Made by a program: the position numbers and the translations under genes. This document shows, one piece after another, positions 4,371-44,917 of a DNA stretch of 46,425 bases. Source of the DNA: Chloroflexota bacterium (GTDB lineage: Bacteria > Chloroflexota > Anaerolineae > Anaerolineales > Anaerolineaceae); contig JAGVUP010000179.1 in the NCBI GenBank assembly GCA_019136215.1, forward strand, positions 1 through 46,425, written 5' to 3'. Numbering within the stretch: the stretch's first letter is position 1; each line of letters begins with the position of its first letter. Below the pieces are notes generated by a model. The model was not told where the DNA came from. It made no database searches and was given only the letters and a program-made list of their open reading frames with translations.

Positions 4371-6110
4371 TTAATATAATTGCTGCTGGGCGGTGTAGAG
4401 CTTGTAATACAATCCTTTTTCTGCCAGCAGTTCCTCATGCGTTCCAGCTTCGACAATTTTCGCGCCTTCCAATGCCACGATCCGGTCCGCGTTGCGCACC
4501 GTCGAAAGCCTGTGGGCGATGATGATCGTCGTGCGTCCCTTGATCAGGCGTTCCAATGCCTGCTGAATTAGCAGCTCAGTCTCGGTATCCACCGATGAGG
4601 TTGCCTCATCCAAAATCAGGATCGGGCTGTCCTTCAGCACCGCGCGGGCGATCGAAAGGCGCTGTTTTTGCCCGCCCGAAAGCTTCACTCCACGTTCTCC
4701 AATCAGCGTGTCGTACCCGTGAGGCATCTGGTCAATAAACTCGGCGGCATTGGCAATCTGCGCGGCGCGGATCATCTCTTCTTCCGTTGCGTCGGGCTTT
4801 CCAAAGAGAATATTCTCGCGAACGGTTCCGTGAAAAAGGAAAACATCCTGCAAAACCATGCTCACTGATTGATGCAGTTGCTCAAGCGCGATATCGCGCA
4901 CATCCACGCCATCAATAAACACGCTGCCCTGGGTAACGTCATAAAAGCGCGGGATGAGGCTCACCAGAGTCGTCTTGCCCACACCGGTGGGACCGACCAG
5001 GGCGATAGTGCTGCCGGCGGGTATTTCCAGATTGATGTCCGTGAGCACTTCCTCGCCCGGATTGTAGTGAAAACCAACGTTCTCAAAGCGGACATTCCCA
5101 CGAATGGGCTCGGGGAATTCGTGCGGTTCCGCCGGTGAGGCGATTTCCGGTGGGACGATGAGGATATCGGCAATGCGTTCAAAGCCGGCAAGGGATTCCT
5201 GTACGGCTTCCATCGAGTTGCCCAGGTTTCGGACGGGGGTATAGAAGCTGTCGAGATATAAGAAAAAAGCAACCAGGTTGGCGATGGAAAGCGTGCCGCC
5301 GATCGCCATGCGCGCGCCAAAAAAGATGACCAACAGTTGACCAATGCCGGCGGCAAGGTCAAAGATCGGGTTAAAGATTGCCATCAACTTTAATGCGCGT
5401 AAGTTTTTATGCAGCACAAGCTGAATTTTGTTATCCACCTTGTCCAGCTCATCTTCTTCCCGGGCAAACGCTTTCACTTCCCGGATTCCTGAAAGGCTGT
5501 CGTTAAGGACCGCGTTCAACTCACCCAAGGACTGCTGGCGAGTCTTGAAGGCGGGGCGGACGAGTTTGCTGTAACCGATCAGCGCGAAAATGATCAGCGG
5601 GATGGGGATGAGGGTCAGCAGGGTGAGCCGCACGTTCATGGAGAGCAGGATGGCAGTCACACCAATTAGCGTGATCCCGTTCACGATCACATCCGGCAGG
5701 GCGTGGGCAATCATACGTTCAAAGAGGTCGGTGTCATTGATGATCCGCGACATCAACTGCCCGGTTTGTTTGTCCTCGTAAAACCGCAGCGAAAGCTTCT
5801 GGATGTGCTCATACACCAGTCGGCGCGCATCCGAGACGACGCCCCAGCCAGCTTTGTGGGAAGCGTAGGAGCGGGTGAATTGCATCAAAGCCCGGGCAAC
5901 GAACACCATCAGGGCGATCAGGGAGATGCGGGTGATGAAATCAAGCGTGCCCTGATTCAGCGGTTCGGTTGTGAGACGGGCGATGAGTTGGCGGATGATC
6001 CAGGGGATGAACAACTGCGCTCCTACCAGACCCAGCATGGTCAGGGCAGTAAGAAGGATCAAACAGGAATACTTTTTTGCAAGTTTAGCAAGCAGAGCGA
6101 AAGGTTTCAC
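4371..6110 (-). CDS. ABC exporter, fused TMD-NBD half transporter (MsbA/multidrug type)
   Basis: The protein is 579 aa with an N-terminal 6-TM exporter domain. NBD motifs: Walker A GPTGVGKTT, signature LSGGQKQRLSIARA, Walker B ILILDEATS. The GTG start overlaps the upstream stop codon (GTGA at 6107-6110). Confidence 0.9.
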   Translation of the reverse strand: MKPFALLAKLAKKYSCLILLTALTMLGLVGAQLFIPWIIRQLIARLTTEPLNQGTLDFITRISLIALMVFVARALMQFTRSYASHKAGWGVVSDARRLVYEHIQKLSLRFYEDKQTGQLMSRIINDTDLFERMIAHALPDVIVNGITLIGVTAILLSMNVRLTLLTLIPIPLIIFALIGYSKLVRPAFKTRQQSLGELNAVLNDSLSGIREVKAFAREEDELDKVDNKIQLVLHKNLRALKLMAIFNPIFDLAAGIGQLLVIFFGARMAIGGTLSIANLVAFFLYLDSFYTPVRNLGNSMEAVQESLAGFERIADILIVPPEIASPAEPHEFPEPIRGNVRFENVGFHYNPGEEVLTDINLEIPAGSTIALVGPTGVGKTTLVSLIPRFYDVTQGSVFIDGVDVRDIALEQLHQSVSMVLQDVFLFHGTVRENILFGKPDATEEEMIRAAQIANAAEFIDQMPHGYDTLIGERGVKLSGGQKQRLSIARAVLKDSPILILDEATSSVDTETELLIQQALERLIKGRTTIIIAHRLSTVRNADRIVALEGAKIVEAGTHEELLAEKGLYYKLYTAQQQLY

Positions 6111-6748
6111 GATTGATGCGCGTCCTTACATGAGATGACCACTGTGGCAAACCTGCCCCAGCGCGGGAGTGGAATGCCCCAGGATTTTTGAAAGGCTTGG
6201 TCCTCCATCCAAAAGAGACCAGTGCCTTGCGTCACCCAGGAATTGATAAAACCCCATGGGGTATGGACATCACCGCTGTAATGGTCCGGATCATAAGCCG
6301 CGAAGACCATTGTATGCCCGCCAGCGCCTTTCAGCGCGTTGTAATTCACGGGGTGGTTCATGTAATAGATAGCGGGGGCTTGTTTGAACCACCAGTAGAT
6401 CGTTACCAGACTGGCAATATTCTCCGCTTCCGCGGTTGCCCGCAGAACCTCGGGACTAAGGTGGAAAAGCGACGCTTTGAGGGGCAGGCGGTGTTTCTTT
6501 GCCAGGTAGCGCAGCAGCCGCACTTGCAGAGGCGGGGTAATGCCGGATTTTGGCGCAAGACGAAAAACCCGCCCGCGCCACCAGAGCTTATTGATCTCAT
6601 CGATGATCTCCTGGGGGTCCAGGCGGACATCAGTCAACAGTTCAATAGCTGCCGAGATGGCGTGAACGGCGCAGTCGTTGCCAACTTGCAGGGATTGATA
6701 TTTAGCGAGATTCTCTTCGGGCAGGGCGCGCAAACTTGTTTTTTTCAT
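6107..6748 (-). CDS. Stand-alone papain-fold cysteine peptidase, C39-like
   Basis: The protein is 213 aa. QVGNDCAVHAISAAI matches the Gln-x4-Cys oxyanion/nucleophile pattern of C39 bacteriocin-processing peptidases. A later GGHTMVFAAYD supplies the His, followed by Asp/Asn candidates (DPDH, FINSW). No TM segment or signal peptide is visible. Confidence 0.55.
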   Translation of the reverse strand: MKKTSLRALPEENLAKYQSLQVGNDCAVHAISAAIELLTDVRLDPQEIIDEINKLWWRGRVFRLAPKSGITPPLQVRLLRYLAKKHRLPLKASLFHLSPEVLRATAEAENIASLVTIYWWFKQAPAIYYMNHPVNYNALKGAGGHTMVFAAYDPDHYSGDVHTPWGFINSWVTQGTGLFWMEDQAFQKSWGIPLPRWGRFATVVISCKDAHQS

Positions 6749-6880
6749 CAGGCTAATTCTACCTTCGCTTCCGCTTTTTTATCGAATTTTGCGCTGATCT
6801 GTCATCAGAAACGCGAGAAACGCAAGCGGATAAGCTGCGATTGCCCCGCACACACCTCACACCGCACACACGCGCGGGCA

Positions 6881-6909
6881 TTGACATTCTGAAAAAAGGA
6901 TGCTAACAT
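6881..6909 (+). promoter_or_regulatory. Sigma-70-type promoter of the riboswitch-btuFCD-like operon
   Basis: TTGACA lies at 6881-6886, followed by a 17-nt spacer and TAACAT at 6904-6909. It sits about 20 nt upstream of the riboswitch P1 stem. Confidence 0.5.
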
Positions 6910-6926
6910 CTTCCTGTAATTGAATA

Positions 6927-7038
6927 CCTGAGGTTACCCGACGCCCGGACGCCAAGGTGTAATGACGGAAGCTGGTGAAAGGCCAGCACTGTACCGCAAC
7001 TGTAAGTCTGAAAGACAAGTCAGAAAGCCTCCCTCAGG
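6927..7038 (+). promoter_or_regulatory. Cobalamin (B12) riboswitch aptamer, compact form
   Basis: P1 pairs CCTGAGG (6927-6933) with CCTCAGG (7032-7038). The core GGAAGCTGGTGAAAGGCCAGCACTGTACCGCAACTGTAAG matches the conserved GGTGAAA...CCGC.ACTGTAA core. The B12-box-like AGTCAGAAAGCCTCCC lies at 7018-7033. The element is located 5' of a BtuF/BtuC/BtuD-like operon. Confidence 0.75.
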
Positions 7039-7097
7039 AAAACCCAACAATACCTTCTCGGATTAGGAGGGTGGGTGAGATTTGGTTCTATTCTCAG

Positions 7098-7128
7098 CCC
7101 TTTCTAATTTAGAAGGGGTTGATTTTTT
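7098..7128 (+). terminator. Intrinsic terminator/attenuator (riboswitch expression platform)
   Basis: An 8-bp stem pairs CCCTTTCT with AGAAGGGG around the loop AATTT, followed by TTGATTTTTT. It lies between the aptamer and the ATG at 7146. Confidence 0.5.
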
Positions 7129-7145
7129 ATGAAATCGGAGAGAAT

Positions 7146-8396
7146 ATGAAAAAAATTGTAACCCTTCTAACTGTACTGTTCATTCTGGCGCTTAGCGCCT
7201 GCCAAGCTCCGGCAAAGCCGGTTGAAATTGTTCAAGAAGCCCCTGCCGCGGAACCCGTTGCTCCCGAAAGTCCTGCCGAAGAGGCTTATCCTGTCGAACC
7301 AAGCCCAGCGGAGACGGTTGCGGAAACCAGCCCCGAACCCGCCCCCGAAGAGCAGGTCACGGTTGACTATGCCAAAAACTTCACACTCGAGTATAAGGAC
7401 GGCTATAAACTTCTGAGCGTTCTAACCCCCTGGGCTGGCGCGGCGGAGCCTTTACAATATGCGCTTGTTCCAGCCGGGCAAGAGGACCCCAGCGGAATTG
7501 GTGACGCGATGGTGGTGCATACCCCGGTTGAGAGCTTCGTCTCACTTTCCACCACTTATCTGCCCTTCCTCGATCAAATCGATGAGCTCACAAGCCTTGT
7601 GGCTGTGGACAGCGGACTGTACACCTTCAATCCGGACGTACTGCTCTGGCTTGAAGCCGGGACGATCGCTGAGGTTGGCAGCGGTTCAATGATCAACGTG
7701 GAACAATTAGTTGAGCTTAACCCCGACCTGATCATGACCTCCGCCAGCGGTTTCGCGGAGTACGACTCGCACCCTCAATTGCTCGAAGCTGGCTTGAGCG
7801 TGGTCATCAATTCCGATTACCTTGAGTATGACCCGCTTGGTCGCGCGGAATGGGGCAAATTTATCGCCGCGTTCTTCGACAAGGAAGCCGAAGCTGACAA
7901 GTTGTTCGATGAAATGGTCGCTCGCTATGAGGAGGCGAAAGCGCTTGTAAGCAACCAGACTGAACCCGTGACCGTGTTTGCCAATACCGCCTATGAGGGT
8001 ACCTGGTATATGCCCGGTGGGGAAAGCTATATTGCCATCTTGCTTGCCGACGCCGGCGCGGATTACGTCTTCAAGGACCTCGAAGGCTCCGGCGCGCAGC
8101 CGCTTGATTTTGAGGTCGTGTTGGAACGCGCCAAGGACGCGGATTTTTGGGTCAACGTCGGAGCGATGACCGAACTGAAGGAGTTGGCAGGCATCGACGC
8201 CCGCTATGAGGATTTCGAAGCCTATCAGCAGGGCAAGGTTTACACTTACAGTAAGCGGATAACTGCCGCGGGCGGCGCGGACTACTTTGAGAGCGGCGTT
8301 GCCGCGCCGGACCTGATTCTGAAGGACCTGATCAAAGCCTTTTATCCCGACCTTCTGCCTGATTATGAATCGTATTACTATCAGGCGCTGAACTAA
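7146..8396 (+). CDS. Corrinoid/siderophore-type ABC substrate-binding lipoprotein (BtuF/FecB-like, cluster A PBP)
   Basis: The ORF track begins at 7119. I prefer the ATG at 7146, which has GGAG 5 nt upstream and yields the lipoprotein signal MKKIVTLLTVLFILALSAC. A Pro/Glu/Ala-rich linker is followed by a Peripla_BP_2-like body. The gene lies downstream of the B12 riboswitch. Confidence 0.8.
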   Translation: MKKIVTLLTVLFILALSACQAPAKPVEIVQEAPAAEPVAPESPAEEAYPVEPSPAETVAETSPEPAPEEQVTVDYAKNFTLEYKDGYKLLSVLTPWAGAAEPLQYALVPAGQEDPSGIGDAMVVHTPVESFVSLSTTYLPFLDQIDELTSLVAVDSGLYTFNPDVLLWLEAGTIAEVGSGSMINVEQLVELNPDLIMTSASGFAEYDSHPQLLEAGLSVVINSDYLEYDPLGRAEWGKFIAAFFDKEAEADKLFDEMVARYEEAKALVSNQTEPVTVFANTAYEGTWYMPGGESYIAILLADAGADYVFKDLEGSGAQPLDFEVVLERAKDADFWVNVGAMTELKELAGIDARYEDFEAYQQGKVYTYSKRITAAGGADYFESGVAAPDLILKDLIKAFYPDLLPDYESYYYQALN

Positions 8397-22718: not shown

Positions 22719-22803
22719 GGAGGGATGGCCGAGCGGTTGAAGGCGCCTGTCTTGAAAACAGGTATAGGGAAACCTATCGTGGGTTCGAACCCCACTTCCT
22801 CCG
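22719..22803 (+). tRNA. tRNA-Ser (anticodon UGA)
   Basis: A hand-folded cloverleaf has acceptor GGAGGGA/TTCCTCC (one G-U pair), anticodon arm CCTGT-CTTGAAA-ACAGG, a long variable arm (TATAGGGAAACCTATC) and T arm GTGGG-TTCGAAC-CCCAC. No CCA is encoded. Confidence 0.9.
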
Positions 22804-22827: not shown

Positions 22828-22916
22828 GGGGAGGTGCCAGAGTGGACGAATGGGGCCGCCTGCTAAGTGGTTGTCGGAGTAAAATCCGACCCAGGGTTCG
22901 AATCCCTGCCTCTCCG
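22828..22916 (+). tRNA. tRNA-Ser (anticodon GCU)
   Basis: The cloverleaf has acceptor GGGGAGG/CCTCTCC, anticodon arm GCCGC-CTGCTAA-GTGGT, a long variable arm (TGTCGGAGTAAAATCCGACC) and T arm CAGGG-TTCGAAT-CCCTG. Confidence 0.9.
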
Positions 22917-25544: not shown

Positions 25545-25627
25545 TGGGCCCGGAAGGATTCGAACCTTCAACCAAGCGGTTATGAGCCGCCTGCTCCGCC
25601 ATTGATCCGCCATTGAGCTACAGGCCC
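25545..25627 (-). tRNA. tRNA-Met(CAU)-like gene (could be Ile2-type) with an 11-nt tandem duplication in the D-arm; possibly non-functional
   Basis: The minus strand reads GGGCCTG TA GCTC AATGGCGGATCAATGGCG GAGC A GGCGG CTCATAA CCGCT TGGTT GAAGG TTCGAAT CCTTC CGGGCCC A. All stems pair. The D-loop is 18 nt because TCCGCCATTGA is repeated twice on the plus strand (25595-25605 and 25606-25616). Confidence 0.6.
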
Positions 25628-33660: not shown

Positions 33661-33732
33661 TCGGTCCAGAAGGATTCGAACATTCAACCAAGCGGTTATG
33701 AGCCGCCTGCTCCGCCATTGAGCTATAGGTCC
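33661..33732 (-). pseudogene. tRNA-Met(CAU)-like copy with mismatched acceptor and T stems (probable pseudo-tRNA)
   Basis: It matches the 25.5-kb copy at 66 of 72 positions once the duplication is removed. The 5' acceptor GGACCTA faces the 3' strand TGGACCG, giving only about 4 of 7 pairs. The T stem GAATG/CCTTC has one mismatch. The D and anticodon arms are intact. Confidence 0.5.
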
Positions 33733-35734: not shown

Positions 35735-36685
35735 TTATGCTTTCAAAAATTCGCGCACAGCGGGGAGCTGACCCGAGCTGCCGAGATAATCATTCTTCGC
35801 CGCGATGAATTTCGCGTACTCAGCCATGAAAATCTTACCAGGATCGCGCAGGTCAAATTTTTCCGGATGTTCCAAGAAAAACTCACGGTGAACGCGCGTC
35901 CAAACCAGGCGGCCATCAGTGTCGATGTTGATTTTGGTCACGCCAAGTTCCGCCGCGCGCTTGAATTGGGTGGCATCCACGCCCCTTGCGCCCGCGAGGT
36001 TGCCGCCGGCAGCATTAATGCGCGCCACCTCTTCCTGAGGCACAGAGCTGGAACCGTGCATCACCAGCGGAAAACCGGGCAGACGTTCCTGGATTTGCGC
36101 CAGCACGTCAAAATGGAGAGATTGCGTGCCCGTAAACTTGAACGCGCCATGGCTGGTGCCGATGGCGACTGCCAGGGAATCGCAGCCACTGCGTTCAACG
36201 AATTCGCGCGCTTGTTCAGGATCGGTCAATTTGGCTTCCGATTCGCTGACCGAAACGTGTTCTTCCACGCCGCCGAGCATGCCCAGCTCCGCCTCGACAA
36301 CAATACCCTTGGCATGGGCAGCATCCACAACGCGCTTCGTGATGGCGATATTCTCATCAAAAGGCTTGCTGCTGGCATCAATCATCACCGAGCTGTAAAA
36401 TCCGGATTCGATGCAGTCATAGCAAGCGGCTTCATCGCCGTGGTCAAGATGCACCGCGAAAACAGCTTCCTGGTAGACCTCATCCGCCGCGCGGATAAGA
36501 CCCTCGAGGAAAGTCTTGTTGGTATAACTGCGCGCGCCCTTGCTGATTTGGATGATGAAAGGCGCTTGAGAATCCAAATTGCCACGGAACAAGCCTACAA
36601 TTTGCTCGAGATTGTTGATGTTATAGGCGCCAATGGCATATTTGCCATAGGCATGCTCGAATAGTTTCTTAGTTGTAACGATCAT
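35735..36685 (-). CDS. fba: Class II fructose-1,6-bisphosphate aldolase
   Basis: The protein is 316 aa. AIGAYNINNLEQ...HLDHG...VMIDAS...EAELG...GTSHGAFKF...LVMHGSS is the class II FBA motif order. Confidence 0.9.
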   Translation of the reverse strand: MIVTTKKLFEHAYGKYAIGAYNINNLEQIVGLFRGNLDSQAPFIIQISKGARSYTNKTFLEGLIRAADEVYQEAVFAVHLDHGDEAACYDCIESGFYSSVMIDASSKPFDENIAITKRVVDAAHAKGIVVEAELGMLGGVEEHVSVSESEAKLTDPEQAREFVERSGCDSLAVAIGTSHGAFKFTGTQSLHFDVLAQIQERLPGFPLVMHGSSSVPQEEVARINAAGGNLAGARGVDATQFKRAAELGVTKINIDTDGRLVWTRVHREFFLEHPEKFDLRDPGKIFMAEYAKFIAAKNDYLGSSGQLPAVREFLKA

Positions 36686-36933
36686 GTTGGCTCCTTTGAG
36701 TAAGATTTACTAATTGCCTAAATTATACTATCCCAACGGGGAAGTCTCAAGCATTTTGCCTTTAGACAGACAAAATTTCCATGACACCCGCAAGGGTACG
36801 TTCTTTATCCAATCCGGAACTGGGTCTCAAGATGATTGAACGGTCTATAGAACCGAGCATCCTTCCCCACTCTTGGAGAATATCAAAAATGCCCCGTCTT
36901 GAGGGTTTTTAAAGCAATTGATACTGAACCTGA

Positions 36934-38184
36934 TCAAAGGAGTCTGATGAGCGGTTCAAACAGCAAGACAATGGTGACCAGGACGATCAAGGAAGTGATG
37001 ATGATCGCCAGGACATTCGTCAGTTTGGAGTTGCGGTATCGACCCATCACAGCTTGATCATTGGCGAGTTTCAGCACCAACGCAAGGATCACCGGCAGCA
37101 GGATCGCGTTGATGGTCTGCGACAAGATCATCATCTGGAAGAGCGGCATGCCCGGTATGAGCACGATCAACACACTGAGAACGACGATCCCGATAAACGC
37201 GCCGTAAAAGATCGGAGCGTCGCGCAGGTTGCGGTTGAGACCGCGTTCAAACCCAAACGCCTCACAAAGCGCGTAGGTCGTGGAAAGCGGCAGCACCGAA
37301 ACCGCCAGCAGAGAGGCACCCAAAAGACCGGCAGCGAAGAGGATCGTGGATGCCTCTCCTGCCAGCGGGGCAAGCGCCATGGCGGCATCTTTGGCGTCTT
37401 CCACGCGGATGCCCGCTTTAAAAAGCGTTGCGGCTGAAACAATGATGATGAAGGCTGAAATAACGTTCCCCCAGGCAGAGCCAAAGGTCACATCAATTTT
37501 CGTTTCCCCATAATTTTCCATGGAGATGCCTTTGTCAGAAACCGATGCCTGCAGATAAAAAATCGCCCAAGGGGTGATGGTGGTTCCAATAACGGCTAAA
37601 ATGGAGATGAAATAGTCGCGCGAGAGCAAAAGTTGCGGGCGGATAGTGTCCCGTAGGATGACGCCCCAATCCGGTTTGATAATGAACACTGTGGCAACAT
37701 AGCTCAGAGCGGCTAAACTGAGACCGATCAATATCTTTTCGATGATCTTGTAGTTGCCGCGCAGAATCAAAAGCCCCATGACAACCGCCATGACCGGCAC
37801 GGTAATCACTTTGCTGATCCCAAAAAGCTCGCCGGCTGCAGCAACACCCGCGAATTCCGCGACCGTCGTCCCGAGGTTGGCAATCAGCAGGCAGAACATG
37901 GCGAAAGTCGTCATCTTCACCCCAAACTTTTCGCGGATCAAGTCGGCGGTGCCTTTGCCCGTGACTGCGCCCATTCTGGCAGCCATCTCCAGAATCACCA
38001 CCTCGCCAACCGTGATTACCAAAATCAGCCACAGGAAGCTGTAGCCGTAGGTCGAACCAACCATCGAGTAAGTGGCGATCCCGGGGGCGTCATTATCCGC
38101 AGAAGCCGTGATAAGTCCTGGTCCAAGAATGCTCAGGAATAACAAGGTTTTCTTCAGCCATATAGGCAGGTTCAGCTTCTTCAT
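36934..38184 (-). CDS. Nramp-related cation transporter with non-canonical metal-site motifs
   Basis: The protein is 416 aa with 11-12 hydrophobic segments. The GPG...D..PG...T TM1 pattern places it in the Nramp/MntH family. However, it has DAPGI where DPGN is expected, and TTITPW where A..MPH is expected. Confidence 0.8.
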   Translation of the reverse strand: MKKLNLPIWLKKTLLFLSILGPGLITASADNDAPGIATYSMVGSTYGYSFLWLILVITVGEVVILEMAARMGAVTGKGTADLIREKFGVKMTTFAMFCLLIANLGTTVAEFAGVAAAGELFGISKVITVPVMAVVMGLLILRGNYKIIEKILIGLSLAALSYVATVFIIKPDWGVILRDTIRPQLLLSRDYFISILAVIGTTITPWAIFYLQASVSDKGISMENYGETKIDVTFGSAWGNVISAFIIIVSAATLFKAGIRVEDAKDAAMALAPLAGEASTILFAAGLLGASLLAVSVLPLSTTYALCEAFGFERGLNRNLRDAPIFYGAFIGIVVLSVLIVLIPGMPLFQMMILSQTINAILLPVILALVLKLANDQAVMGRYRNSKLTNVLAIIITSLIVLVTIVLLFEPLIRLL

Positions 38185-38187
38185 CGC

Positions 38188-39453
38188 TTACCTTCCAGAG
38201 AACCGGGGCAGTTTTTTCTTCCAGGCGGTTGGAAGCATGGTGTCAATCGCGTCGTCAACGGTGACAATCCCCAGCATCGCGTTATTGTCGGGGTCGATCA
38301 CCGGAACCGCCATCAGATTGTATTTTGCCACGAGGTAGGCGGCTTCTTTCTGCGGGGTCAGCGGATTGACCACCACGACGTCGTCATCAAACCAGCTGGA
38401 AAGATCCTGGTCAAGAGGCGCCGTGACGAGATCGCGCAGGCTGATGACCCCCTGGAGCTTTTTGTCCTCATCGAGCAAATAGACGTAATACATGAATTCG
38501 TCATCTTTCGCTTCCTCATTGGTGCGGAGGTGATGCAGAGCTTGTTCGACGGAGAAGTTTCCGGGAACTGACGCAAATTCGGTGGTCATAATACCGCCGG
38601 AGGAATCCTCAGGATAGCGCAGGAGGATACGCACGTCCTCTTCGTCCTCATCTTCCATGAGGTTCAGCAGTTGTTCACTGATCTGGTCATCCATGTCAGC
38701 CAGGATGTCCGCAGCCTCGTCAGGGTCCATCTCTTCCAGGACGTCGGCAGCGCGTTCCGGCTGCAAGGCGGAAATCACCGCCTGCTGCACTTCCGCTGAT
38801 GACTCTTCGAGAGTATCAGCCAATTGCTCATCCGTGAAACCCTGCAGCAGGGCTTTACTGGTGTGGTGATCCAGGTCATTGAGGATCAGAGCGATGTCAG
38901 CCGGTTCCATCTGCACCAGGCGGTCCTGCGAGACCTTGAGGCGCAAGGGGTCATCATGTTCGATCGAAGCGACATCTTCCCAGGGAATGACATGGGTTTT
39001 CCATCGTTTTTTGAGGAGCCTGGAAATCGCTTTGGCAGGGGTCTCCAGCCCCAGACGGCGCAGAAGCCCTGTGCCCCCGACATCCACACCTGTAAGATAG
39101 AAGTTATTGTTCTTGCGGGCAATTTGCAGGTCGTTCACCCGCACCAGACGCTTGCCCTCCGTGTCAACGATTTGCTGGTCGAGCGCACGTTGTTTGAGGT
39201 AAAGCTCATGCCCGGCGGGTTTAAACATGTCTAATTTGGAAATATCCACGTTCAGCGTGATGCTGGGCCAGAGCGTGGCAATATCTTTCGCGTCGATCAG
39301 TTTGGGTTCATCGGAACCACTCCTGATGGAAATGGCTGTGATGGGAGGCATACTTTGGTCAGTTCTATCCACCAGAAGGTCATCCAATTTCCCGACGACA
39401 TGCCCAAAAGCATCCCAAACCTTTTGACCAAGTAGTTTGCTTAAATAGATCAT
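38188..39453 (-). CDS. Soluble PRC-barrel x2 / MgtE_N / CBS-pair protein (MgtE cytosolic module without the membrane pore)
   Basis: The protein is 421 aa. It has PRC-like repeats (LLGQKVWDAFGHVVGKLDDLLV; QIVDTEGKRLVRVNDLQI) and an acidic MgtE_N-like helix bundle (ERAADVLEEMDPDEAADILADMDD). Two CBS motifs follow (VISLRDLV; AVPVIDPDNNAMLGIVTVDDAID). No TM segment is present. Its stop lies 3 nt from the Nramp-like start. Confidence 0.75.
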   Translation of the reverse strand: MIYLSKLLGQKVWDAFGHVVGKLDDLLVDRTDQSMPPITAISIRSGSDEPKLIDAKDIATLWPSITLNVDISKLDMFKPAGHELYLKQRALDQQIVDTEGKRLVRVNDLQIARKNNNFYLTGVDVGGTGLLRRLGLETPAKAISRLLKKRWKTHVIPWEDVASIEHDDPLRLKVSQDRLVQMEPADIALILNDLDHHTSKALLQGFTDEQLADTLEESSAEVQQAVISALQPERAADVLEEMDPDEAADILADMDDQISEQLLNLMEDEDEEDVRILLRYPEDSSGGIMTTEFASVPGNFSVEQALHHLRTNEEAKDDEFMYYVYLLDEDKKLQGVISLRDLVTAPLDQDLSSWFDDDVVVVNPLTPQKEAAYLVAKYNLMAVPVIDPDNNAMLGIVTVDDAIDTMLPTAWKKKLPRFSGR

Positions 39454-39678
39454 CTCTCACCTCACAACCTGTATTCATTTTTGGTGAAAGCGAAAATCAC
39501 AAGGGACAGGCTCACTCACCTGCGCCCTTGCCCGCGGTTTATTTACGCGGCTGAGTACGGATGAGTGGGGAGTCCCTTGATACTTGCAGGGTCGGGTTGA
39601 TCGTCTGCAGATAAACTTTCACTTTCAAGTATCAAAACAAGGTCCATTTCACTCTCTCAAATTAGTGTTTATATTATA
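39454..39678 (-). promoter_or_regulatory. Candidate promoter (-10 TATAAT at 39673-39678) plus ~200-nt structured 5' leader of the sensor/Nramp operon
   Basis: The minus strand shows nested long-range helices. GATACTTG pairs with CAAGTATC. CAAGGGAC pairs with GTCCCTTG, and this helix encloses CACTCA/TGAGTG and the hairpin CCGCG-TAAATAAAC-CGCGG. A U-rich tract (TGATTTTCGCTTTC) follows. No known riboswitch class was recognised. Confidence 0.35.
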
Positions 39679-39899
39679 CCCCCTGAATCGCGGGAATGGG
39701 GGAAAATTTGGAAAAATTCTGTAAAATGGTACGGTTTTTGGGAGATTCGAGAAGGATAATGCAGCAAGTTGCAGCTTGACGGGAATATCAACGCGAGGGT
39801 AGAGTGTCCGGTTAGCCTGGATACGCACCCGAAGCAATCTTAAGAATTATGAGGTTGCGAAACAATTGGTCGTTCGCACTTTGCCGAGAAACAGACTGT

Positions 39900-40712
39900 T
39901 CAGATTGATTGTCGGTTTTCTCCAAACAGTTTGTTCAGCCTTGGCACTTGTTCTTCCAGCGCCCAGGTCTCTGTGCGCCAACTGAACCATTCCCCCACCC
40001 CGCCGTACTCAAACGCGACAATTTCCGGCTCGCGCCATGCCTCAGCGGCAATCTGGTCTGCAGCCCATTCCGCTGAGCTCCAGTCGCCCTCTTGCATTTC
40101 AAAATGATCCGCCAGGTAGCCGTGGTATGAGCGCAAGCCAGTGATATGAATTTCGTGCAGGCGCTCCAAAGGCAGACTCTCGATGTATTCGCGGTAATCC
40201 ACGCCGAGCGTGTCCGCAGAAATCCGCGCGTGCGAAATGTCCAGCAATAAACCGGTGTCGGTCTCGAGGATCGCTTCGGTGATCAGTTTCGGATCGCTTG
40301 CGAGGTGATACTCCGGTATCGGCGGTTCAAAGGGCAAATTCTCCGAGATGACGGTATAACCCGGGAATTCTCGTTTGAGCAGGTTGATTTCATCGATCCA
40401 GCGCTTAAGCAACGTGAGACGGTCGGTTTTGTTCCCAATCTTCAAATCTGCCGAGCCCGAGAGATGGCAATTCACGTGTGGGGTGTTCGTCTCAGCCAGC
40501 ATGCGTCTTAGCTTTGCATAGTCGAGGCGCTGAACCCGGTCCCTTCCGATCGTGATATCGAGATGAAGATAAACCGGTTTGATTGGTGTAGCAGCCTTGA
40601 GCAGCCCCTCCCACTCAGGACATTTGAACAGGTCAAAGTCGACCTTGCCAGCCATTACCAATTCAGCAAGTTTGGTTGAATAGTTGACGGCAAATCGCAT
40701 CGCTGACCTCAC
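39900..40712 (-). CDS. DUF692/MNIO-like (MbnB/TglH family) TIM-barrel metalloenzyme
   Basis: The ordered motifs VYLHLDI, VNCHLSG, VISENLPF, GLLLDISHARISA, LHEIHITG, YLADHFEM and IVAFEYGG parallel the His/Glu/Asp iron ligands and the LLLD(V)xN...E(I)HLAG signature of DUF692. The GTG at 40712 overlaps the upstream stop (GTGA). The ATG at 40700, with GAGG 6 nt upstream, is an alternative start. Confidence 0.6.
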   Translation of the reverse strand: MRSAMRFAVNYSTKLAELVMAGKVDFDLFKCPEWEGLLKAATPIKPVYLHLDITIGRDRVQRLDYAKLRRMLAETNTPHVNCHLSGSADLKIGNKTDRLTLLKRWIDEINLLKREFPGYTVISENLPFEPPIPEYHLASDPKLITEAILETDTGLLLDISHARISADTLGVDYREYIESLPLERLHEIHITGLRSYHGYLADHFEMQEGDWSSAEWAADQIAAEAWREPEIVAFEYGGVGEWFSWRTETWALEEQVPRLNKLFGENRQSI

Positions 40713-42544
40713 GCAGCCAAAGCTTCACTTTCTTTATCCGCGAAGGGATCGTACTTCGATTCGAGGTCCTGGCGGAACTGTTTGGTATAGAGGTTGTAGT
40801 AGTGCCCTTTCTTGCGCATCAGGCTCTCATGATTTCCCTGCTCAATGATTTGACCGTCATCGATGACCATAATGATATCTGCCGATTTGATGGTCGAGAG
40901 GCGGTGGGCAATAATGAAACTGGTGCGTCCGCTCATCAAATTGTGCATGCCTTTTTGGATCAGGGCTTCGGTCAGAGTGTCCACTGAGCTGGTCGCTTCG
41001 TCCATGATGAAGATGTCGGGTTCTGCCAGGAGGGCGCGCGCGATGCTGATGAGCTGTTTTTGCCCAACCGAAAGCAGATTGCCGCCTTCTCCGACGTCTT
41101 GATCGTATGCCTTCTCCAAACCCATGATGAATTCATGCGCTCCGGCAAGCTTTGCTGCGTGCTCGATCTGTTCGTCCGTCGCGTTCAATCGCCCATAGCG
41201 CAGGTTGTCGCGCACACTGCCCGAAAAAAGATGCGGAACCTGGAGGACGACGCCAATGCGGGATTGAATGTCTTCGAGGGAATATCGGGTATAGTCGTGC
41301 CCGGCAATGCGGATCACGCCTTGGCTCGGTTCGTAAAAACGGCAGAGCAGGTTTACGATTGTGGTCTTTCCGCCGCCGGTCGTGCCGACAAGGGCAACGT
41401 TCTTCCCTTGGGGAATGTGGAAACTGAGGTTTTTAATGACCGGCTCATCGTCTTCGTAATGGAACGAGACGTTTTCGAACTCCACATCGCCAACCAGCGA
41501 ATCCACGGGCAATAAGTTTTCCCGGTTGCGGATTTCGGGCTGCATGTCGAGCAGGGAAAACACCCGCTCAGAAGAGGCGACAGCGTTTTGCATTTCTGCA
41601 TATACCCGCGCCAGGTCCTGGATGGGCCAAAGGATCATCATGATGTAGGAAACAAAAGCCTGCAGCACGCCCACACTGATCGCGCCTCCCGCCACTTGCA
41701 GCCCACCCCGCCAGAGGATCAGCACAAGTGAAATAGCGCTGATAGTCTGGATGGTCGGCAGGTAGATGGCGGAGAGGAAAACCGCGCGGTAGCTTTCCTG
41801 ATACATGTCCGTGGAAAGAATCTTGAAGTCCAGCAGGTTCTGTGCTTCACGGCGCAGGGCTTTAACCACTCTGACGCCGGTGATATTCTCGTTCAGCGAC
41901 GCGGTCATCTTGGAGTTTGCCCGGCGGGAGAGGCGGTAGTGATGGTAGATTTTGACGCGGAATTTAAACGACACAAAAATCATCACCACCAGCGAAACCG
42001 CGACGATCATCGTCAGCCTGGGACTGAGCTTTAGCATAAAGTACACCGCAAAACAGATGTTGGTCACCGCCCAGACGGTATCCAACACACCCCACGTGAG
42101 CAAGTCAGCCATCTTCTCCGTGTCCGAAGTCACGCGTGACATGATCCATCCCAGTGGAGTCTTACTGAAATACGACAGCGAAAGCGTCTGCAGGCGATGG
42201 AAGAGTTTCTTGCGGAAGTCGTAGCGCAGTTGCTCGCCAAGCAAGCCGATGATGTAAATCATGATAAAGAAACCAGCTACCTGCGCCAGGATCACAAGAA
42301 TGTAGCTGCGGAATAAGCTGATCATTACCGGTAGATTTTTGGCGACGATGCCTTCGTCGATGATGCGCTTGCTCAACACCGTGTAGTAGGCGTCCAAAAA
42401 GGATACCAAAGCGATCCCCAAAACCGAGATGAGAATCAGCAGCCAATAGGGCTTCAATGATTTAAATAGCCGTCCGATGACGCCGCTCTTGAGGTCGACA
42501 ACGTCGTCCAGTTCTTCTTCGTTATATTGATTCGACACGGTCAA
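40709..42544 (-). CDS. ABC exporter half transporter (TMD-NBD), consensus-site subunit
   Basis: The protein is 611 aa. Motifs: Walker A GTTGGGKTT, signature LSVGQKQLISIARA, and Walker B IFIMDEATSSVD with the canonical catalytic Glu. Confidence 0.9.
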   Translation of the reverse strand: MTVSNQYNEEELDDVVDLKSGVIGRLFKSLKPYWLLILISVLGIALVSFLDAYYTVLSKRIIDEGIVAKNLPVMISLFRSYILVILAQVAGFFIMIYIIGLLGEQLRYDFRKKLFHRLQTLSLSYFSKTPLGWIMSRVTSDTEKMADLLTWGVLDTVWAVTNICFAVYFMLKLSPRLTMIVAVSLVVMIFVSFKFRVKIYHHYRLSRRANSKMTASLNENITGVRVVKALRREAQNLLDFKILSTDMYQESYRAVFLSAIYLPTIQTISAISLVLILWRGGLQVAGGAISVGVLQAFVSYIMMILWPIQDLARVYAEMQNAVASSERVFSLLDMQPEIRNRENLLPVDSLVGDVEFENVSFHYEDDEPVIKNLSFHIPQGKNVALVGTTGGGKTTIVNLLCRFYEPSQGVIRIAGHDYTRYSLEDIQSRIGVVLQVPHLFSGSVRDNLRYGRLNATDEQIEHAAKLAGAHEFIMGLEKAYDQDVGEGGNLLSVGQKQLISIARALLAEPDIFIMDEATSSVDTLTEALIQKGMHNLMSGRTSFIIAHRLSTIKSADIIMVIDDGQIIEQGNHESLMRKKGHYYNLYTKQFRQDLESKYDPFADKESEALAA

Positions 42545-44348
42545 TTTCCTCTTTCAGGGCACTGTCAATCCGAGCCTGGATGTCGTAAATGTCCTTATAG
42601 ATTCCGGGTTGGCTGAGCAGTTCTTCATGCCCGCCCATTTGAACGATCTTACCTTTGTCGAAGACCAGGATCAGATCCGCATTCATGATGCTCTGAATAC
42701 GATGCGCGATGATGAACGTGGTCCGGTCGGTCATCAGGCTTTCCAGCGCCGCCCTGATCTGCACCTCCGTTTCCATATCCACCGATGAGGTGGAATCATC
42801 AAGGATCAGGATGCGCGGGTTGATCAGCAAGGTGCGCGCGATCGCCAGGCGCTGTTTCTGCCCGCCCGAAAGCGTCACGCCCCGCTCACCAACAAGGGTA
42901 TCGTAACCATTCTTAAAAGAAAGGATCACGTCGTGGATCGCGGCTTCGCGGGCGGCGTTTTCAATTTCTTCCTGGCTCACCTCACGGTGCACTCCATAGG
43001 TGATGTTGTCGCGGATCGAGCAGGAAAAGAGAAAGGGCTCCTGCTCCACGACCCCAATTTGAGAGCGCAAAAAATCCCGGGAGTATGCATTCAGGTTGAC
43101 CCCGTCCAGCAGGATCTGCCCGGATGTCACGTCATAAAAACGCGGCAGCAGGTTTACCAGCGAGGTTTTCCCAGAGCCAGTCGAACCGAGCAGCGCCACA
43201 ACCATCCCAGCCTGGCATGAAAAGCTGACATCGTCCAGAACCAGTTGGTCTTTCTCATAGGCAAAGCTGACTTTATCGAAGCAAATTTGCCCGCGGATGC
43301 CTTCTTCGGGTTGGTAGGTGCAGCCGGTCATATCTTCTTCCGGCGCCTGCAACACCACCGCGATGCGTCCGTACGAGACGAGCGCACGCGACGTGTCGAT
43401 GATGAGGCGTCCGAGGTTGCGGATGGGCCATATCAGCCAGCCCAACAAGCCGTGGAAACTGATGAAATCGCCCAGGGTGATGCCCCCGTTGAGCACCATC
43501 ATCGCCGCGTAAAAGTTGCTTCCGACGCTCTGCGCGGAACAAATAATATCCGAAAGAGGCCAGAATAAAGCGTGCATCCAGTTAAATTTCTTGCCAAGGC
43601 GCAATTTTTCCCGGTTTTCTTTATCGAACTTCTCGATCTCATATTCCTGGCGGGCAAACGCCTTCACAACACGCACACCGCTGAGGTTTTCCTGCAGGTC
43701 GGTGGAAAGGATCGCGCCTTGCGCCTGGTAAGCTTCGTAGGCTTTAGACAGCCGTTTGAAGAAAATGAGCGAGATGACCAACACGATCGGGAAAATGATG
43801 ATGGAAACCAGTGCGAGGCGCAGGTTGATCCGCGCAATGGCGATGAAAGAGATGATGAAAATCATTACGATCCGTCCCACACCAATCGCCTGGTCCGCGA
43901 AGAAACGTCGCAGTGTGTCCACGTCGGAGGTTGCCCGATCCAGTAAGTCGCCTGTCTTAGATTCTGAGTGATAGCTGTAGGAAAGCCGCTGGATATGGTC
44001 AAAGAGATGGTCGCGCAGGCGGCGGGTGGAATTTTCGGCGGTGAAATTTGCCATCCAACTGCTCATGAAGCTCGAAAGGGCTTGCAGAGCGATCAGCGCG
44101 CCAAAGGTCAGCGCTCCAAGTGTCAGCTCCTGACCGACCAGCTTTCCAACCATCATTCGGTCAATGAAATTACCAAGGTAAATGTACATCCCCGTGCGGG
44201 CAAAGGCTGCCAGGGAAAGGAAGATCGTGGAAACAAGGTAATGGAAATGATATCCGCGCATTAAATGCCACAAACTCAGCAGTTTATTCTTACTGCCGAG
44301 TACCTCAGGCATATCCAGCGGGATATAGGGTCCCTTAGTCTCGTTCAC
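42522..44348 (-). CDS. ABC exporter half transporter (TMD-NBD), degenerate-site subunit
   Basis: Motifs: Walker A GSTGSGKTS, signature LSGGQKQRLAIART, and Walker B ILILDDSTSSVD, where Asp replaces the catalytic Glu. The ORF track's start at 44645 overlaps the moaA remnant and precedes the promoter. The GTG at 44348 (GGAG 5 nt upstream) or the ATG at 44312 is more likely. Confidence 0.85.
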   Translation of the reverse strand: MNETKGPYIPLDMPEVLGSKNKLLSLWHLMRGYHFHYLVSTIFLSLAAFARTGMYIYLGNFIDRMMVGKLVGQELTLGALTFGALIALQALSSFMSSWMANFTAENSTRRLRDHLFDHIQRLSYSYHSESKTGDLLDRATSDVDTLRRFFADQAIGVGRIVMIFIISFIAIARINLRLALVSIIIFPIVLVISLIFFKRLSKAYEAYQAQGAILSTDLQENLSGVRVVKAFARQEYEIEKFDKENREKLRLGKKFNWMHALFWPLSDIICSAQSVGSNFYAAMMVLNGGITLGDFISFHGLLGWLIWPIRNLGRLIIDTSRALVSYGRIAVVLQAPEEDMTGCTYQPEEGIRGQICFDKVSFAYEKDQLVLDDVSFSCQAGMVVALLGSTGSGKTSLVNLLPRFYDVTSGQILLDGVNLNAYSRDFLRSQIGVVEQEPFLFSCSIRDNITYGVHREVSQEEIENAAREAAIHDVILSFKNGYDTLVGERGVTLSGGQKQRLAIARTLLINPRILILDDSTSSVDMETEVQIRAALESLMTDRTTFIIAHRIQSIMNADLILVFDKGKIVQMGGHEELLSQPGIYKDIYDIQARIDSALKEEIDRVESI

Positions 44349-44399
44349 AATAACTCCAATCAAACCAAAACAGGTCTTTTGTTTGGCATCAAGTGGAGA

Positions 44400-44428
44400 A
44401 GTATAAACCTCTGATCCTATTGAGTCAA
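44400..44428 (-). promoter_or_regulatory. Sigma-70-type promoter of the ABC-ABC-DUF692 cassette
   Basis: On the minus strand, TTGACT lies at 44423-44428, followed by a 17-nt spacer and TATACT at 44400-44405. The promoter lies within the non-homologous tail of the truncated moaA ORF. Confidence 0.5.
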
Positions 44429-44917
44429 AGGTTTTTGCAAGAGGCTGTGCAAGAGGCTGCTGAAAAAAACCGCTTCTTCCGCGGCGCGGATGCCTTCCAG
44501 GGTTTGCGCGAGCGAGCCAAGCCGCGTGATGTAGCGGAATCTCTCTGGTCGCAGCGTATCCAGGCTGATGTTCAGCCGGTCCACGCCTCCCTCCCGTAGC
44601 GGTCGGGCTAAGGCAGGCAAAAGGCTTCCGTTTGTCGTCAGACACAGCTCCTCAAGCCCCTCAAGCGCGGAGAGCATGCGGCAGAAGTCCACGATTCCCC
44701 GGCGCACTAAGGGTTCACCGCCTGTCACGCGGATCTTATTAATGCCGCACCTGACCGCGGCAGCGGCGATATCGCGCAGTTCTTCAAAAGAGCACATATC
44801 GCTGTGCACGCGCATTTTAACGCCCTCTTCCGGCATGCAGTAGCGGCAGCGGAAGTTGCAGCGGTCTGTCACGCTAATGCGCAGATAAGTGATGGGTCTT
44901 TCAAAAGTATCGAGCAT
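44417..44917 (-). pseudogene. moaA: Truncated GTP 3',8-cyclase MoaA (radical SAM N-terminal half only)
   Basis: YLRISVTDRCNFRCRYCMP (the CxxxCxxC motif), KIRVTGGEPLVRR, LTTNG and NISLDTL match MoaA up to ...GIRAAEEA (about nt 44471). The frame then reads unrelated sequence and stops. The C-terminal ~180 aa, including the second-cluster domain, are absent. Confidence 0.75.

Follow-up and report, generated by a model that had tools for sequence, protein, structure and literature searches.

A pore-less MgtE-type sensor gene and an Nramp-related Mg2+ transporter gene behind a candidate leader-peptide attenuator in an Anaerolineaceae operon

Results

Organisation of the operon

The stretch of DNA analysed here (the window) comprises positions 1 to 46,425 of contig JAGVUP010000179.1, from the assembly GCA_019136215.1 of a Chloroflexota bacterium of the family Anaerolineaceae. 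It contains an operon of the "mgtE-like fragment + nrmT" type, which has been known since 2014, with both genes on the minus strand. The first gene (38188..39453) encodes a soluble protein of 421 residues with the domain order PRC-PRC-MgtE_N-CBS-CBS, called the sensor in what follows; it was assigned with Pfam, NCBIfam and structure models, and the length of 421 residues is also found in 28 related loci. The second gene (36934..38184) encodes a 416-residue transporter of the Nramp-related Mg2+ transporter (NRMT) type, a Mg2+/Mn2+ family, as assigned from Pfam, the best PDB match and an alignment of residues. Ahead of the sensor gene, on the same strand, lies a leader RNA with a short upstream open reading frame (uORF).

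The coordinates of both open reading frames (ORFs) were already correct in an earlier annotation of this DNA (the original prediction), and the 416-residue Nramp-fold gene indeed begins 3 nt after the sensor ORF: between the TAA that ends the sensor ORF and the ATG of the transporter lie only the bases gcg. Since a GGAAGG sequence is located within the 3' end of the sensor ORF, the NRMT gene is probably translationally coupled to the sensor gene. The end of the operon is poorly defined, because a weak hairpin plus a T-run is all that follows the stop codon of the NRMT gene.

The transporter belongs to the NRMT clade by its sequence signature

The 416-residue protein matched the Pfam Nramp family (PF01566) over residues 36-386 with an E-value of 1.5e-89, and scored 130 bits against the NCBIfam MntH model, under the cut-off of 430 bits. 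Its best match in the PDB was EleNRMT (7qia, E 1.5e-102), compared with values of 1e-20 to 1e-30 for MntH and DMT chains, which places it closer to a characterised NRMT than to MntH/DMT proteins. It could be aligned with EleNRMT over 399 positions without gaps, at 43% identity. The NRMT signature has been defined as DxxG-TxxA/T (Ramanadane et al., PMC8806188), that is, DxxG in helix 1 instead of DxxN and TxxA/T in helix 6 instead of A/CxxM. In the transporter, the motif of TM1 reads D32-A-P-G35 where canonical proteins have D-P-G-N, so that the metal-binding Asp is retained and Asn is changed to Gly, and D32..G35 lies over D55..G58 of EleNRMT. The motif of TM6 reads T201-T-I-T204-P-W206 in place of A-x-x-M-P-H, with Ala replaced by Thr, Met by Thr and His by Trp, and T201..T204 lies over T224..A227. 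Both motifs had been read in this way before, and the gapless alignment bears out that the equivalents of DPGN and MPH are altered.

The complete map of corresponding residues between the transporter and EleNRMT is D32/D55, G35/G58, E110/E133, T201/T224, T204/A227, W206/W229 and Q356/Q379. Residues of the proton pathway are lost as in other members of the clade: W206 occupies the position of the first helix-6b His, the Gln of helix 10 is kept (Q356), and E110 corresponds to E133. By all of these sequence-level criteria, the DxxG/TxxT signature and EleNRMT as the best solved relative among them, the protein is a member of the NRMT clade of SLC11/Nramp, as the original prediction had proposed. 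In EleNRMT, T224 is needed for Mg2+ transport, Q379 is essential and the helix-6b histidines are replaced, and the protein carries both Mg2+ and Mn2+ (PMC8806188). By homology, the transporter of the window would be an importer of hydrated Mg2+ (and Mn2+) that is not coupled to protons.

The sensor is a pore-less MgtE cytosolic module with two PRC barrels

In the sensor, Pfam located MgtE_N at residues 182-283 (E 2.5e-23) and two CBS domains (CBS E 4.5e-16). The PRC family (PF05239) scored 27.2 bits on the whole protein against a cut-off of 21.2, and a search with each N-terminal half gave weak matches with E-values of 0.0019 and 0.011. An AF2 model of residues 1-175 alone (pLDDT 88, pTM 0.84) matched the tandem PRC-barrel proteins CdpB1/CdpB2 of Archaeoglobus (8qzo) over all 175 residues (E 1.8e-6, TM ~0.6), and matched single PRC barrels as well. 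The Pfam score, the weak matches of the halves and the model together identify the N-terminus as a tandem PRC barrel. The MgtE pore domain PF01769 was sought in the sensor by Pfam with no match; the NCBIfam mgtE model (TIGR00400) covered only profile positions 24-251 of 450, with 173.6 bits against a cut-off of 232.75, and the protein ends 14 residues past the CBS pair. Because the pore domain is missing, the TIGR00400 match is partial and the chain ends after the CBS pair, the sensor is judged from its domain content not to be an MgtE transporter. Pfam, NCBIfam and the AF2 model therefore agree with the original prediction, which had described the ORF at 38188..39453 as two PRC-like repeats, MgtE_N and a CBS pair without a pore.

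Residues 176-407 of the sensor matched the cytosolic domain of Thermus thermophilus MgtE (2yvy) with an E-value of 6e-32, and an AlphaFold model of the sensor (pLDDT 82.8) matched the same structure in Foldseek with a TMt of 0.81. When the cytosolic Mg2+ ligand positions of Thermus MgtE, as taken from PMC5882242, were mapped onto the sensor, five of the six were acidic (E59 to D213, D91 to D245, D95 to D249, D247 to D401 and D250 to D404), the sixth being D226, which maps to N379. The sensor thus keeps the N/CBS interface sites Mg4, Mg6 and Mg7 and half of Mg5, and the sites of the plug helix are gone.

The double-PRC module, searched with the N-terminal part alone, was found in 1268 representative clusters, of which 394 reached E<=1e-10. 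Many proteins of ~420 residues with the same PRC-MgtE_N-CBS architecture are among the best matches, and in proteins of ~600 residues (P0062, P0093 and P0065) the PRC-PRC-MgtE_N-CBS module is fused to a complete MgtE pore domain. A literature search found no paper with both PRC-barrel and MgtE; as far as we searched, the PRC-extended form of the fragment is common and is not discussed in the searchable literature. That the gene could be a truncated mgtE pseudogene was rejected, since the length of 421 residues and the stop codon are kept in 28 loci and the N-terminal module recurs in the 394 clusters at E<=1e-10. Judged by this conservation, the sensor is an intact and conserved pore-less MgtE cytosolic module. 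Its most likely role would be to bind cytosolic Mg2+ and to feed back on the carrier.

The gene pair is conserved and was described in 2014

A scan of species-representative genomes with the sensor yielded 30 loci, all of them in Anaerolineaceae/Chloroflexota metagenome-assembled genomes (MAGs), with sensor identities of 57-89% (individual loci are given below as L-numbers). Wherever the DNA continues downstream, which is so in 29 related loci, the next gene after the sensor gene encodes an NRMT (29 of 29). The same order was found in a locus of Candidatus Magasanikbacteria, where the sensor is split into a PRC-MgtE_N gene and a CBS gene, in L033, whose sensor homologue shows 46-50% identity, and in metagenome loci; in L034, the gene downstream of the sensor encodes 401 residues and has no domain match on record. 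The adjacency of the two genes, on which the original prediction rested, is thus conserved among close relatives and also in distant loci.

Two variations of this arrangement were noted. In L002, L003, L004 and L019, two tandem NRMT paralogues follow the sensor gene (in L003, for example, at 5284-6516 and 6611-7840), with ~65% and ~86% identity to the transporter of the window; they may be specialised for different metals or concentration ranges. In the distant homologues L031 (4001-5231), L033 (3001-4265) and L034 (886-2154), the sensor is divided into a PRC-MgtE_N gene and a second gene, which has a CBS match in L031 and L033 and no domain match on record in L034. The split in L033 and L034 could alternatively be a frameshift or an assembly error.

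It has been reported by Shin et al. (2014, PLoS Genet, PMC4072509) that in front of most NrmT genes lies one that encodes an MgtE cytoplasmic domain; these pairs were named mgtE-nramp operons, many of them are located behind M-box riboswitches, and in C. acetobutylicum the MgtE-like fragment is divided in two. The sensor of the window falls into this class of fragments, being a stand-alone homologue of the MgtE cytoplasmic domain whose gene is adjacent to and co-directional with an NrmT gene. When the A. capsulatum pair Acp2976/2977 was co-expressed, rescue was not further improved by the fragment, and the C. acetobutylicum transporters were functional without it; a cytoplasmic feedback regulation by the MgtE-like fragment was put forward by the authors as speculation (PMC4072509). 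The statement in the original prediction that no experimental description of such a pairing was known is consequently wrong, as a pair of this kind was both reported and co-expressed in that study. Its second proposal, an uptake system made of two polypeptides, has to be reduced to at most a transporter plus a regulator, because the transporters of C. acetobutylicum did not need the fragment to function. The idea of regulation in trans is a re-derivation of the hypothesis published by Shin et al., and as far as the later literature is searchable the role of the MgtE-like fragment has not been resolved there.

The leader stands in the place of an M-box

Alignments of 24-28 upstream regions begin to be conserved at a TATAAT sequence, which can be read directly at 39673..39678 (minus strand) and represents the putative -10 box of the operon promoter. 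It starts 219 nt before the sensor ATG; from there to the ATG the region is conserved even at ~70% protein identity, and the sequence 5' of it is divergent. There is no recognisable -35 box before the TATAAT, and it was missed by a promoter scan for that reason. The leader of ~210 nt (39454..39666, minus strand) is conserved across loci with 57-89% sensor identity and folds with -67.6 kcal/mol (z = -2.8). At its end lies the ribosome-binding region of the sensor gene, GTGAGGTGAGAG (39454..39465, minus strand), in which GAGGTG is invariant according to the columns of alignment A1 (see below).

An Rfam scan of 39300..40000 at E<=1 detected neither an M-box (RF00380) nor any other family. M-boxes at the gathering threshold were likewise absent from the scanned relatives L018, L021, L022, L023, L027, L029, L030 and L033-L035. 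As a positive control, a full-length M-box (129 bits) was found at 3140-3339 of L032, a Thermoleophilia MAG, directly upstream of a PRC-MgtE_N gene; it ends 90 nt before the start codon and has a terminator-like expression platform. Since this M-box precedes a PRC-MgtE_N homologue, homologous operons appear to be controlled elsewhere by a Mg2+ riboswitch, and by its position the leader of the window occupies the place of the M-box in these homologues.

The lack of an M-box bears on the substrate, as the operon might serve manganese or another divalent metal, with the MgtE-like protein responding to that metal or acting as a metal chaperone. The A. capsulatum NrmT, which has an adjacent fragment and no M-box, rescued a Mn2+ defect fully and a Mg2+ defect only at millimolar Mg2+ (PMC4072509); the window likewise has no M-box, and EleNRMT transports Mn2+ as well as Mg2+. 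Against this, the EleNRMT residues required for Mg2+ are present (T224 = T201, G58 = G35), most of the MgtE Mg2+ ligand positions are kept in the sensor, a homologous PRC-MgtE_N gene is under M-box control, and the leader peptide described below resembles the Mg2+-responsive motif class of MgtL. On balance we regard an operon that serves manganese or another such metal in place of magnesium as unlikely.

The leader contains a conserved uORF with an acidic/proline cluster

Within the leader lies a uORF of 34 codons plus TAA (39543..39647, minus strand), which had been overlooked in the original prediction and which encodes the putative leader peptide MDLVLILESESLSADDQPDPASIKGLPTHPYSAA. It was recognised by a conserved, aligned ATG and by its coding signatures. 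An ORF starts from this same ATG in every related leader, with a length of mostly 34-38 codons (29 in L018, 24 in L029 and L030), and its position is fixed at ~195 nt before the sensor ATG, directly behind the conserved TATAAT. The other two frames are closed within 9 codons in 11 of 12 representatives, and insertions and deletions in the uORF are in-frame. The entropy of codon positions 1, 2 and 3 is 0.90, 1.00 and 1.22, respectively, so that the third position is the most variable, and a conserved Ser is retained in L018 through a switch from an AGY codon to TCT. These signatures are evidence that the uORF is a real coding feature, and its translation is predicted.

All uORF peptides have in common the sequence G/E-S-E/D-S, then an acidic run and then P-x-P. 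The acidic/proline part occurs in the variants DDQPDP, DPDDQPGP, ADEKPGP, ADEDPGP, EEPAKP and EDPATP. In the window it is DDQPDP at codons 15-20 (39588..39605, minus strand), a candidate ribosome-destabilising or stalling motif on the grounds of its recurrence and of a synonymous bias. With Asp, Glu or Pro at five of six residues it belongs to the EPDP-like motif class, at a position differing from that in MgtL. At least four of six such residues were found within residues 14-23 in 10 of the 12 representative peptides and in all three new metagenomic ones, compared with a background among 34-residue segments of the window's proteins of 9% (and 1.9% for at least five of six). In the closest group of relatives, codons 14-21 showed four synonymous variants and one amino-acid variant, and codons 22-34 five and 13, respectively. 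The Asp/Glu/Pro theme is kept without conservation of sequence in the distant loci L034, with METDSSSSHIASPDEPASYQDTLPP followed by a canonical terminator, and L033, with MPEPSDQASSSETTEDAVPLPG... and, behind it, a 13-bp hairpin with a U-run.

A pattern scan of metagenomes for the leader gave nine matches, of which four lay by chance within coding regions. The remaining five were genuine leaders; each stands before the same sensor gene, and none before another Mg2+ gene.

Three helices of the leader are supported by covariation

A consensus structure was calculated with RNAalifold on 24 distinct related leaders (alignment A1), which revealed three covarying helices, named here H1, P_stop and P_term. 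Double compensatory changes occur in 12 of 15 pairs, none of 500 shuffles reached the observed score, and 91.9% of the cells in the three helices are paired, compared with ~50% in slid controls. The 5' arm of H1, GAAAGTGAAAGTTT (39613..39626, minus strand), lies in codons 8-12 of the uORF and shows AU<->GC covariation in a ratio of 14:8. Its 3' arm, TGATTTTCGCTTTC (39486..39499, minus strand; TAATTTTTGCTTTC in the closest relatives), is the U-rich tract that follows the terminator-like hairpin; the duplex of both arms has an energy of -15.9 kcal/mol (z = -5.0). P_stop (39532..39550, minus strand) is a hairpin with the arms CCGCG and CGCGG and the stop codon of the uORF in its loop. The arms change to CCATG and CATGG in other lineages, with GC<->AU exchanges at two pairs in 6-7 sequences.

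P_term (39500..39531, minus strand) is a terminator-like hairpin, GCAAGGG...CCCTTG, conserved with covariation and with the U-rich tract directly 3' of it. When the uORF was masked, as if it were occupied by a ribosome, the leaders of the closest group folded P_term as a 13-bp hairpin followed by (G/T)AATTTTTGCTTTC. A canonical terminator is also present at the position of P_term in the distant leaders, at 785-809 in L034 and as the 13-bp stem with U-run in L033.

An additional element was noted in the heptamer CCTGCAA (CCUGCAA in the RNA) at 39584..39590, which corresponds to uORF codons 20-22, the Pro-Ala just after the acidic cluster, and to columns 83-89 of A1. No consistent pairing partner was found for it, and its invariance points to a constraint at the RNA level.

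These observations raise the alternative that the leader is a new metabolite or ion riboswitch, possibly for Mg2+, whose helices form the ligand fold, the uORF being incidental or secondarily translated. The fold with its z-score of -2.8, the covariation support for three helices, the heptamer that is nearly invariant also at third codon positions, and the location of the leader at the position of an M-box in a homologue would all be in line with it. However, every leader has kept the ATG, frame and stop codon of the uORF, with the other frames closed, the indels come in multiples of three and the Ser is preserved through the AGY to TCT switch. Synonymous-biased substitutions fall exactly in the Asp/Glu/Pro cluster, what distant homologues retain is an Asp/Glu/Pro-rich uORF plus a terminator and not the RNA sequence, and the region between H1 and P_stop folds differently by lineage. 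We therefore judge a riboswitch to be rather improbable. The original prediction had seen a TATAAT followed by a structured leader before the first gene and had proposed control at the RNA level. The TATAAT (39678..39673), the conserved fold and the three covarying helices sustain the first of these, and the conserved regulatory leader is real; its control looks like that of a leader-peptide attenuator and not like that of a plain structured RNA or riboswitch.

Discussion

A leader-peptide attenuator as the proposed mechanism

Nascent chains rich in Asp, Glu and Pro destabilise the translating ribosome, and do so more at low Mg2+; MgtL (MEPDPT...) uses this destabilisation to induce mgtA (bioRxiv 10.1101/2021.02.02.429294). 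The examples of such Mg2+ leader peptides that we found in the searchable literature are all enterobacterial. By analogy with MgtL, a response of the leader peptide to Mg2+ would be predicted here. We propose, with a probability of about 60%, that the locus as a whole is an operon of the known type, consisting of an NRMT transporter and a pore-less sensor, in which an MgtL-like leader acting as a ribosome-mediated attenuator replaces the M-box.

Transcription from the conserved TATAAT would yield the leader of ~210 nt that stands in for the M-box of other lineages. At low Mg2+, the ribosome would stall or drop off at the Asp/Glu/Pro cluster, which would change the helices formed in the leader and allow transcription to read through into the operon. 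At high Mg2+, the peptide would be completed and the terminator (P_term) would form. The direction of this switch, Mg2+ as the signal and the interaction between sensor and carrier are what we infer; the identity and adjacency of the genes, the conservation of the uORF and of three helices, and the M-box that is lacking here and present in a homologue are observations. For the closest group, the geometry would fit a trp-like 1:2/2:3/3:4 scheme as one possibility: CAAGGGAC, the alternative partner of the terminator 3' arm, would be covered by a ribosome whose P site holds Pro20, and the segment that sequesters the 5' arm would be left free. This scheme could not be transferred to other lineages.

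Control at the level of translation initiation was considered as well. An anti-Shine-Dalgarno (anti-SD) role of the H1 3' arm was rejected, the pairing being decent in the closest group, L027 and L023 (z ~-2) and absent in L021, L024-L026, L018, L029 and L030. In the closest group and L022, the DDQPD codons of the uORF (GACGAUCAACCUGACC, 39591..39603) are complementary to the SD/start region of the sensor gene (GGUGAGAGAUGAUC, 39448..39461), in an erm-like manner. This pairing of the DDQPD codons with GGUGAGAGAUGAUC, as found by RNAalifold in the closest group, was also discarded, its energy being within the range of shuffled sequences and the pairing not being found in other lineages. Finally, pairing of a leader segment with the sensor initiation region was dropped as a general mechanism after an unbiased sliding-window search, in which no segment beat the shuffled controls in any lineage.

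Several points weigh against the attenuator and the roles given to the two proteins. The cluster is at residues 14-20, that is, 13 residues into the peptide and not right after Met as in MgtL, and the chain preceding such a motif counteracts destabilisation according to its length, 5-10 residues giving little protection and at least 20 being protective (bioRxiv 10.1101/2021.02.02.429294). No consistent antiterminator was found across lineages, P_term is already formed in the consensus of the naked RNA, and the alternative "rod" fold of the closest group ends in the same helix beside the U-tract. The U-tract is weak or absent in L021 and L024-L026, and no leader segment pairs with the ribosome-binding site of the sensor gene more strongly than shuffled controls do. 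CCUGCAA is nearly invariant across otherwise divergent lineages, third codon positions included. With respect to the sensor, the fragment of A. capsulatum gave no extra rescue and the transporters of C. acetobutylicum work without theirs; with respect to the substrate, which could be Mn2+, the homologue from A. capsulatum acted like a transporter of Mn2+ (PMC4072509).

A more far-reaching interpretation would combine an MgtL-like ribosomal Mg2+ sensor, evolved independently in Anaerolineaceae/Chloroflexota and coupled to an intrinsic terminator, with a portable PRC-PRC-MgtE_N-CBS gating module, which acts either fused to a pore or in trans on an Nramp-fold carrier. We consider this extended version possible, if doubtful.

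Genes around the operon

Just upstream of the leader, a gene for a DUF692 (MbnB/TglH/ChrH) enzyme was found at 39900..40712 on the minus strand (PF05114, 38.5 bits), an enzyme of the modification of ribosomally synthesised and post-translationally modified peptides (RiPPs). It is preceded by two fused ABC exporter genes (40709..42544 and 42522..44645, minus strand). A precursor peptide for the DUF692 gene was not identified. MbnB/TglH enzymes modify Cys residues.

This neighbourhood suggests another role for the uORF, as a functional small protein or RiPP precursor tied to the DUF692 gene and the exporters. Nineteen related loci have a homologue of the DUF692 gene upstream in the same orientation, and the N-terminal half of the uORF peptide is conserved and the C-terminal half variable, as in RiPP precursors. 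The DUF692 gene, however, lies anywhere from 0.3 to 3 kb away from the uORF, whereas the uORF is fixed relative to the sensor ATG, and no DUF692 gene is present within 4 kb in L021, L022, L029, L030, L033 and L034. The uORF peptides have no conserved Cys, and their C-terminal half is constrained by RNA pairing, the covariation of P_stop turning ...AA* into ...AM*. A RiPP precursor is accordingly a very unlikely reading of the uORF.

Elsewhere in the window, a strong sigma-70-like promoter match (TTGAGA-17-TATAAT, 11/12) lies at 36722..36750 on the minus strand, before a gene for a class-II fructose-bisphosphate aldolase (35735..36685). A cobalamin riboswitch (RF00174) was detected at 6914..7050 on the plus strand, upstream of an ORF at 7119..8396 (plus), with 41.3 bits versus a gathering threshold of 31.5. 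The Rfam scan also detected four tRNA genes at 22719..22803 (plus), 22828..22916 (plus), 25545..25627 (minus) and 33662..33732 (minus).

Significance

The gene pair adds one more member to the class described in 2014. What goes beyond the searchable literature is the variant of the leader, uORF-based, attenuator-like and in the place of the M-box, together with the double-PRC module. A well-conserved family of PRC-bearing proteins of 421 residues that is always coupled to NRMT is suited to testing what the MgtE-like fragment does, a question now more than ten years old. The leader is the part of greater use. If the proposed attenuator is correct and the uORF senses Mg2+ via the ribosome, this strategy would not be confined to the enteric mgtA/mgtCBR leaders; it would be an independent invention of a distant phylum, made for another transporter family and taking over the function of the M-box. 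Nature would then provide two answers to one regulatory problem that can be compared, and the combination of an Asp/Glu/Pro uORF and a terminator ahead of Mg2+ transport genes would serve as a search image for further cases.

Comparison with known systems

The closest parallels to the operon are those of Shin et al. (C. acetobutylicum Ca_c0685 and A. capsulatum Acp2976/2977), which also have a gene for MgtE N plus CBS directly upstream of and co-directional with a transporter of the NrmT clade, and for whose fragment the same role in cytoplasmic feedback regulation has been proposed. In contrast to these, the fragment of the window has an extra N-terminal double PRC barrel of ~175 residues, the leader contains an Asp/Glu/Pro uORF and is not an M-box, and the host belongs to the Chloroflexota.

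The transporter resembles EleNRMT (7QIA; Ramanadane et al. 2022, eLife, PMC8806188) in its 43% identity over 399 gapless residues, in the D, G, T and Q residues of the site, in the Glu on helix 3, in the Trp at the first helix-6b His and in the DxxG-TxxA/T signature. They differ at the position of the canonical Met, which is Thr204 here and Ala227 in EleNRMT, both being allowed by the signature, and at the second helix-6b His, which is Asn in EleNRMT (PMC8806188) and Leu here, the latter read by eye from the motif alignment. The sensor, for its part, matches the MgtE channel of Thermus thermophilus (2YVX/2YVY) in sequence and fold of the N domain and the CBS pair, and five of the six cytosolic acidic Mg2+ ligand positions stay acidic. 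The plug helix and the five-helix transmembrane pore of the channel are missing from the sensor, to which a double PRC barrel has been added.

With the MgtL/mgtA leader of Salmonella and E. coli (Chadani et al. and Gall et al., in the account given of them in bioRxiv 10.1101/2021.02.02.429294), the leader of the window shares a short ORF in the 5' leader of a Mg2+ importer operon, a cluster of Asp, Glu and Pro with alternating prolines (DDQPDP here, EPDP in MgtL) and the embedding of this ORF in stem-loops upstream of a termination signal. Measured against that account, there is no sequence homology, the peptide has 34 residues here and 17 in MgtL, the cluster is at residues 14-20 and not at 2-5, the terminator looks intrinsic and not Rho-dependent, and both the phylum and the transporter family are different. 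The M-box (ykoK, RF00380) differs from this leader in architecture, which here consists of a uORF and three helices and gives no match to the M-box model at E<=1. The two share the same position before homologous PRC-MgtE_N/NrmT operons, as in L032, and presumably the same regulatory input.

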